64,000 bases of DNA from contig JBHLQM010000005.1 of assembly GCA_048884785.1 (NCBI GenBank), forward strand, positions 9,272 to 73,271. Reading direction: 5' to 3'. A program made the translations under genes and the position numbers. The DNA is from Candidatus Thorarchaeota archaeon (GTDB lineage Archaea; Asgardarchaeota; Thorarchaeia; Thorarchaeales; Thorarchaeaceae). Positions within the stretch are counted from its first letter, which is position 1; the number at the start of each line of letters is the position of its first letter. This document shows, in pieces, positions 44,564-45,485 of this stretch. The notes below the pieces were generated by a model that searched no databases, was not told the DNA's origin, and saw only the letters and a list, made by a program, of their open reading frames with translations.

Positions 44564-44818
44564 ATGGCAAACCGAGAAGAACTCCCATTGAGTCAATACA
44601 GACAAGTATCTGAACTTAGACGACAGTATCAATGTGAGTATAAGATGGAACTCTCTTTGAAATACGGCGAAGAGCCTTCTGTTTGGAGTAAACAGGGGGA
44701 GCGGCTGCACAATCTGGCTGAGAATGATGCAGAGATATCAAGTGAGGATCACTCCTTTCTGTTTCTATCATTGCTGATAATCACCATACTTGCAGGAGCC
44801 TTCTGGATTCTCTTATGA
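44564..44818 (+). CDS. Cas4-like N-terminal fragment with C-terminal TM anchor
   Basis: VSELRRQYQCEYK...G..LH (Cas4/AddB N-terminal S-EL..Y.C...G...H pattern), then a hydrophobic helix. Confidence 0.6.
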   Translation: MANREELPLSQYRQVSELRRQYQCEYKMELSLKYGEEPSVWSKQGERLHNLAENDAEISSEDHSFLFLSLLIITILAGAFWILL

Positions 44819-44822
44819 AGAG

Positions 44823-45485
44823 ATGAGTAAAATGCTTAATTCTTTCCTTCTAGTTGTATTCATCTTCGGAATTCTTGCACTAATTCTTCTATCCAAGCAT
44901 GAAATGTTGACTCTTGGGTATAACGCAATTAGTAGAGCAAAACCTGCGCAGCTAGATCTTAACTCCTTTGTAAGAAACGGTCCAAATGAAAAGGACTCAA
45001 AGAGGAGCTATATCTTTAGTGAAGTGCCTATAGTTTCAATGGCACATAAGTTCAAGGGAAGATTCGACCATGCAATCCTTAGTTGGGATACCGGTCCAAT
45101 CCTCGAGTATATTATCGAAAAGAAGTATCCTGCAAACTATTTGCCTGAAAGAGCTTCGCCTGAAGATATCTTTCAAGCGTCCCTATATGCACTAGCTCTA
45201 AAGGAGAAAGGGGTATCAGTTACATCTACTCAGTTAGTCATTATCTACTGCCTTCAGGATCTGGCCTCCACTTGCCCTGGAGCTCATCGTATCAGTCAAT
45301 GTAGTAGATGCAGGGGAGGAAGGGTCTTCAAATCGAGATTCAATGAGAAAGCCACACAGAGGAAGCTAAAGCAGCTAGATGAAGTGTGGTACAAGCAGAG
45401 AAAACCAAGGCCAAATCCATCGCAGGAAAACTGCAGAATTTGCTCATTCGGTAAGAATGGCATATGTCCGTTCTCAGCCGTTTAG
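44823..45485 (+). CDS. Cas4-like PD-(D/E)XK nuclease core with N-terminal TM anchor
   Basis: TM helix; EVPI, GRFD, IEKK, QASLY, C-terminal CRICSF.....C. Confidence 0.75.
   Translation: MSKMLNSFLLVVFIFGILALILLSKHEMLTLGYNAISRAKPAQLDLNSFVRNGPNEKDSKRSYIFSEVPIVSMAHKFKGRFDHAILSWDTGPILEYIIEKKYPANYLPERASPEDIFQASLYALALKEKGVSVTSTQLVIIYCLQDLASTCPGAHRISQCSRCRGGRVFKSRFNEKATQRKLKQLDEVWYKQRKPRPNPSQENCRICSFGKNGICPFSAV

Follow-up and report, generated by a model that had tools for sequence, protein, structure and literature searches.

Our analysis suggests that two adjacent genes of a Thorarchaeota archaeon, ORF A and ORF B, probably encode an Fe-S nuclease of the EXO5 branch that is tethered to the membrane and made of two subunits, one from each gene. 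The source genome is 3.6 Mb long and 91% complete, and the window analysed here is a 64,000-nt stretch, its contig C5. Known nucleases of the EXO5, Cas4, AddB and Dna2 kinds consist of one chain stapled by an Fe-S cluster. A and B would be two membrane proteins that share out the cluster ligands and the surroundings of the active site, and would place an EXO5 relative on the membrane of an Asgard lineage. The chemistry is of a known kind; we found neither the two-gene, doubly anchored architecture nor any other split or membrane-anchored Cas4 or EXO5 in the literature searched, whose coverage takes in a minority of the subscription journals. Current annotation misses the pair, with A often uncalled or hypothetical and B called hypothetical or Cas4.

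ORF A (44564-44818, + strand, 84 aa) covers the N-terminal part of an EXO5-like nuclease and ends in a C-terminal tail anchor. Its predicted fold consists of a beta-strand, a helix with the Fe-S cysteine Cys24, a crossover helix with His49, and the anchor. The motif reads VSEL..QYQC24.YK...G45..LH49, in which C24, G45, L48 and H49 are invariant across 29 homologues. Cys24 (44633-44635, +) is the predicted ligand no. 1 of a 4Fe-4S cluster, and G45-x-x-L48-H49 (44696-44710, +) aligns with the G..H121 stretch beside E125 on the EXO5 crossover helix. The membrane helix of A (residues 66-84; 44759-44815, +) has a mean Kyte-Doolittle (KD) value of 2.68 here and of 2.19-3.48 across all 29 homologues, and on average about one residue lies beyond it. 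At the junction (44816-44825, +) the TGA stop of A is followed by a 4-nt gap and the ATG of B at 44823, which is in a different frame.

ORF B (44823-45485, +, 220 aa) has an N-terminal signal anchor, a PD-(D/E)XK core, a four-Cys insert and three C-terminal Fe-S cysteines. The membrane helix spans residues 5-23 (44835-44891, +; KD 2.84), and the catalytic motifs E67, GRFD82, IE99-x-K101 and Q118ASLY122 lie at 45021-45188 (+). The insert C143-x7-C151-x8-C160-x2-C163 (45249-45311, +) is invariant in 30/30 homologues, its pattern recurs in 48/48 loci, and it is likely a second metal (Zn) site. The three predicted C-terminal cluster ligands, C204-x2-C207-x7-C215, are found at 45432-45467 (+), and the usual set of one N-terminal and three C-terminal cysteines is hence spread over two chains, C24 in A and C204/C207/C215 in B. 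G79, D82, E99, K101, Q118, Y122 and all seven cysteines are invariant in 30 homologues of B. The motifs of A and B are far beyond chance because they are invariant in the 29 A and 30 B homologues, and strong hydrophobicity of the two helices is a feature of essentially every member. All the motifs and TM helices that a previous sequence-only reading of this DNA had listed are present, and its two membrane anchors are borne out as one hydrophobic helix per ORF, kept in the homologues.

We regard the split between A and B as virtually certain to be real. The two are separate ORFs at 48/48 Thorarchaeota loci (47 distinct ones, as L060 and L127 look identical) and fused at none, and the stop of A directly follows its hydrophobic helix at every locus. 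The frame offset from A to B is +1 in 20 loci, +2 in 26 and in-frame with a stop in 2. At L016, L019 and L047 the frame of B opens only past the stop of A, and therefore a frameshift product is excluded. Both ORFs are under purifying selection, with dN/dS in close pairs of 0.12-0.41 for A and 0.13-0.26 for B. We thus see offsets of 0, +1 and +2 and dN/dS well below 1, rather than the constant offset or relaxed selection of a frameshift or broken gene. No full-length single chain was found among the matches listed from 86 Thorarchaeota family genomes, no fused A-B protein among 81 + 64 database matches, and no fused form by a longer-length search with A, which is weak evidence. The split and both helices, whose conservation the sequence-only reading had proposed to check, are kept throughout the relatives. 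In the Thorarchaeota family A occurs in 50/59 genomes and B in 49/59. The remaining phylum sample gave weak matches only, those inspected being single-chain proteins, and the named homologues of the pair in the database search are almost all Candidatus Thorarchaeota.

At 27/48 loci the stop of A lies inside a Shine-Dalgarno-like GGTGA, compared with 2.2% of the long ORFs in the source genome, and the complement of this motif is present at the 16S 3' end, ATCACCTCC. The A/B junction of the source genome itself is without GGTGA. The motif fits translational coupling, a reading that the terminal Trp/Gly codons confound.

To place the two proteins in a family, we ran the profile of B against 1.84 billion representatives. 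The 20 strong matches (E below 1e-30) are all B-like and lack the motif of A; below them comes a gap, followed by soluble proteins of 240-280 aa that have no membrane helix. A aligns to residues 33-73 of a soluble single-chain family (hhalign probability 97.0, E 1e-10) and B to residues 111-258 (hhalign probability 99.7). These profile alignments show that A and B match complementary, non-overlapping parts of one Exo5 family. Pfam Exo5 is found in 23/24 of its members, and its profile matches human EXO5 with E 1e-20 versus 3e-4 for the Cas4 SSO0001. It ranges over Bathyarchaeia, Nitrososphaerota, haloarchaea and Dehalococcoidia and is sporadic in other Asgard. The halves taken alone match Exo5 weakly, A having Pfam Exo5 in 5/29 members (best E 0.013) and the B profile reaching human EXO5 at E 0.003. 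The TIGR00372 cas4 match (E 6e-5) scores 23 bits against a cut-off of 65, and PF01930 scores 12.3, below its cut-off of 22.7.

Using EXO5 numbering (PDB construct numbering + 27, fixed by the T88E mutant), the profiles map C24 of A to C92, H49 of A to H121, D82 of B to D182 and E99 of B to E196, and therefore the cut lies just after the crossover helix. We take the histidine H49, like H121 of EXO5, to be a metal ligand. In human EXO5 the active site is D182/E196 and E125 belongs to the crossover helix; the path of the ssDNA begins near the cluster and leads out beneath this helix (PMC8710748).

EXO5 (PF09810; human EXO5, PDB 7LW7-7LWA) and its prokaryotic single-chain kin share with A+B the V[ST][DE]L..Q..CE motif, the G..H crossover helix, the D/E-x-K and QxxxY motifs, the W..R.P..C..C..C tail and the 1+3 cysteines. 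The pair differs from them in having two genes and in the membrane helices that flank the cut, to which nothing comparable is seen in the single-chain relatives. Cas4 (PF01930/TIGR00372; SSO0001, 4IC1; type I-C Cas4, 8D3L) has the same fold, the RecB-like motifs and the 1+3 Cys staple, and the solo-Cas4 proteins (PMC5704561; M. mazei, PMC12501428) share the stand-alone location of A+B. In contrast to Cas4, A+B score below the cut-offs, have no cas1, cas2 or array link, fall on another branch of the tree, and are split and anchored. The tree was built from joined soluble parts and is unrooted, with no outgroup, limited taxa and other solo-Cas4 groups left out; it places the Thorarchaeota pair alongside EXO5-like single chains and the Chloroflexota pair discussed below alongside Cas4 (support 100/99). 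Long branches make the placement of the sister group of the Thorarchaeota clade weak. Going by the profiles and this tree, the enzyme most likely belongs to the EXO5-like branch and not to Cas4 proper. Of the Cas4-like nuclease that the sequence-only reading had described, the fold and the cysteine staple stand, and the assignment shifts from Cas4 towards EXO5.

Soluble EXO5-like single chains of Dehalococcoidia (P0102, P0144-P0164, L092-L101) carry an invariant four-Cys insert of their own, CxxC-x7-C-x11-C, at the same place as that of B. We considered these forms as the donor and rejected them, as the cysteine spacing differs from that of B and they are not sister to the pair in the tree.

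The structure models agree with a joint fold. B modelled alone has a pLDDT of 84.8; among solved structures Foldseek matched it to 8D3L (E 1.6e-4), 4IC1 (4e-4) and 7LW7 (5e-4), and an archaeal Exo5 cluster ranks first among its structure matches in the Atlas (TM 0.62). The A+B complex with a 4Fe-4S ligand scored 0.78 versus 0.01 for the best control, against a mark that 58/80 solved complexes and 2/110 mismatched pairs reach, counts which apply roughly here. The halves of a split gene can pass this mark through likeness to solved EXO5/Cas4 folds. At least 74% of the contacts are shared between runs, with a partner pLDDT of 62 or more. The confident contacts link A 11-16 with B 76-80, A 70-81 with B 9-20, and A 18-31 with B 113-122, 181-189, 207-209 and 214-215. 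The A strand 11-16 is predicted to pair with the catalytic strand 76-80 of B, the A helix 18-31, which carries Cys24, to pack on the QxxxY helix of B and beside Cys207/Cys215, and the two membrane helices to pack together. The proposed cluster site common to both chains agrees with these contacts, which place the Cys24 helix next to B 207-209/214-215 in an output without ligand geometry. The model indicates compatibility rather than binding in the cell. All things considered, we think it highly likely that A and B form a heterodimer.

Hydropathy and charge bias suggest that B is N-out/C-in. Over 28 members, its N-flank has 4 K/R versus 19 D/E and its C-flank a mean of 3.6 K/R, the C-flank being the more positive in 26/28, and no twin-arginine motif was found in B. 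From these features the soluble parts of A and B very likely lie on the same, cytoplasmic face, in line with the earlier proposal that the two halves meet on one side of the membrane.

We propose that A and B would be made 1:1 from one transcript and co-translated; the tight coupling of the genes suggests such co-production rather than regulated 'assembly gating', as the sequence-only reading had it. A would enter the membrane by its tail anchor with the N terminus inside, B by its signal anchor with the N terminus outside, and their soluble parts would face the cytoplasm. The helices would pair, and co-folding would complete the core and the 1+3 Cys cluster, A donating Cys24 and His49. The membrane-helix pair would stand in for the covalent link after the crossover helix, under which EXO5 passes ssDNA. 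On its conserved motifs the complex is likely an active DNase, and by analogy with EXO5 a 5'->3' polarity on ssDNA is somewhat favoured; DNA, probably ssDNA and from its 5' ends, would then be degraded on the inner side of the membrane. Its job could be housekeeping, as a nuclease that is inherited vertically, is dispensable and serves DNA-end processing or turnover, a role to which we give slightly less than an even chance. Loss of the cluster abolishes the activity of human EXO5 (PMC11981726) but leaves the M. mazei solo-Cas4 active (PMC12501428), and therefore any need for A may lie in completing the fold and not in the cluster. The characterised solo-Cas4 prefers supercoiled dsDNA (PMC12501428), and the substrate of A+B is therefore not readable from the family alone.

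A+B are flanked on one side by a divergent AbrB/ACT-like-DedA-CpXC block and on the other by ORF C, next to which lie the convergent aRF1 and PheRS; none of these neighbours (aRF1, PheRS, DedA, AbrB/ACT-like) gives a functional clue. The pair is single copy at this fixed housekeeping locus over ~15 genera and outside defence islands, which fits poorly with an alternative that we consider unlikely but worth keeping in view, namely that the same heterodimer blocks or processes incoming DNA at the membrane (virus, plasmid or uptake), possibly switched by assembly. A tether on the cytoplasmic face would suit such a task, the layout has apparently arisen twice, suggesting a recurring membrane-linked need, and solo-Cas4 genes have been proposed to act in defence or repair (PMC5704561). 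However, PADLOC gave only weak Cas4 profile matches for A+B, ComEC is absent from 5/5 genomes searched, DprA is patchy, uncorrelated and also present in genomes without A+B, and the tight gene coupling favours constitutive co-production over gating. NurA is present regardless of the pair. No viral copies of the Thorarchaeota B were found in IMG/VR, and the Chloroflexota B matches viral sequences only in Clostridium phages at 23% identity. A role in DNA uptake or defence is so far unsupported, given the lack of ComEC, the fixed housekeeping context and the lack of viral copies.

Membrane-anchored 'Cas4' proteins occur in Chloroflexota. Searching for Cas4 matches without the N-terminal third of the profile, we found a second family, and at 20/20 genome loci selected for that partial match the proteins are B-type with a small A-type gene just before. 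The Cas4-type pair is found in Chloroflexota (L162-L201), in 7/151 genomes of the archaeal phylum holding Halorubrum (L214-L220) and in metagenomes (L226-L305), where 63/80 loci have it, none fused and with all three offsets; at the remaining 17/80 no B was found, 7 of these being at contig ends. Its neighbours are housekeeping genes, with a Peptidase_M50/PDZ gene in 9/20 loci and NAD kinase plus a RecN-like gene in 6/20. The layout is shared with the Thorarchaeota pair: a small first gene with the first Cys, G..H and a C-terminal membrane helix, and directly next to it a second gene with an N-terminal membrane helix, the core and three Cys. The Cas4-type pair differs in its motif SE.G.Y.YC.RAWW and in lacking the four-Cys insert, and the A parts of the two pairs barely align (hhalign probability 9). 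It is possibly the Chloroflexi solo-Cas4 clade of PMC5704561, in the text of which we found no mention of a split or membrane anchor.

A single clade of both split groups is rejected (p-AU 0.004), and the simplest reading of the sequences would be that the double-anchored split was gained twice. That a separate Cas4-type family is cut at the same place and also anchored twice suggests convergent selection for a membrane-bound DNase. We speculate, as a rather unlikely extension, that two-subunit membrane nucleases form an undescribed class, which arose at least twice, from an EXO5-like and from a Cas4-like ancestor, at the same seam, and in which a helix pair replaces the link and would make an openable, switchable channel for DNA at or crossing the membrane. 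If so, the switch could be the membrane state or a partner, and the tasks could include entry surveillance, uptake or end-less ssDNA loading. Part of the 'solo-Cas4' set may have been studied as half-enzymes, and culturable Chloroflexota offer a direct way to test what solo-Cas4/EXO5-like proteins do.

It is improbable that B has a cleavable signal peptide for export or is an outward-facing DNase, or that the complex acts on RNA or as a non-catalytic DNA tether. Signal peptides can look like the hydrophobic N-terminal segment of B, and substrates vary in the family, but Fe-S assembly is cytoplasmic, B has an acidic N-flank, a basic C-flank and no twin-arginine motif that we could find, and the catalytic residues are invariant.

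The sequence-only reading had also stated that the nuclease has no CRISPR link and that ORF C (45522-45932, +, 136 aa, a basic helical bundle) may be a third component; the first statement is upheld and the second is not. No CRISPR-like repeat family was found in the window and neither cas1 nor cas2 in the source genome (91% complete). Among 86 Thorarchaeota family genomes cas1 occurs in 19, versus ~70 with the split gene, and several cas1 loci have their own cas4 adjacent. ORF C is a conserved neighbour, 18-82 nt past B in 30/30 loci and always convergent with aRF1, restricted in our Asgard search to one order, where 54/59 genomes of the family and also the sister family have it. It has no Pfam, NCBIfam or PADLOC family and no fold match at E<=0.001, and its Atlas matches are unnamed clusters only (~0.9). 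A and B are both cleanly absent from the syntenic site in three genomes of genus g12 (96-99% complete) and one of g15, and ORF C and the flanks are kept in these four genomes (93-99% complete); the sister family has ORF C, with A and B not found. In a neighbour-gene tree with a weak root g12 and g15 are nested among carriers, and therefore joint loss is the likelier history. A+B are one dispensable unit and ORF C is independent of them, under stronger constraint than either (dN/dS 0.03-0.12). ORF C was therefore rejected as an obligate third component, as it persists where A+B are gone. With these counts, it is very improbable that A+B form a CRISPR adaptation factor in trans or a three-component A-B-C system, despite the weak TIGR00372 match and the constant proximity of ORF C.

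Finally, a sequencing indel, pseudogene or programmed frameshift yielding one TM-hairpin protein has a negligible chance, since the 38-nt overlap of the frame of B with the end of A in the source genome is outweighed at family level by the three offsets, the three loci without overlap, B's own start, the selection on both ORFs and the absence of fusions.

Several minor observations concern the locus and its surroundings. In genus g4 the locus is decaying, with A interrupted by insertions or A+B partly deleted: G024 has an IS607-like serine-recombinase element inside ORF A (L079:175-999, L010), G009 a truncated A and a deleted B (L077:2862-3440), and G215 an 8-kb insertion inside ORF A (L078:894-8608). 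This last insertion, a TnpB-like cargo element of unusual size, encodes an 1811-aa ORF without Pfam or PADLOC match and a 727-aa ORF that contains a TnpB/Cas12f zinc-finger domain. In one genome of genus g5 (L062:9639-10928) and in genus g9 (L064:8591-9802) A is immediately preceded, on the same strand, by an MFS/Atg22-like transporter gene, which is absent elsewhere and probably incidental.

In the window, the AbrB/ACT-like gene (43242-44389, -; PRK08577-like) runs divergently from A, with DedA/VTT and a CpXC zinc-ribbon gene behind it; the 174-nt intergenic region between the AbrB/ACT-like gene and A has a short inverted repeat at 44502-44518. A promoter and terminator scan with a bacterial consensus was at chance level, and Rfam gave no match in the window. 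ORF 35411-38593 (-) encodes a 1060-aa secreted beta-helix-like protein, and its in-frame internal repeats at 37128-37403, spaced by 111 and 57 nt, are no CRISPR array. A strong negative AT skew (-0.26) is seen at 62001-64000 over a 729-aa minus-strand ORF (61297-63486). The aRF1 gene (45935-47020, -) is compact with 361 aa; its GTS-type loop reads GRHSSF, and NIKS and GGQ are intact.
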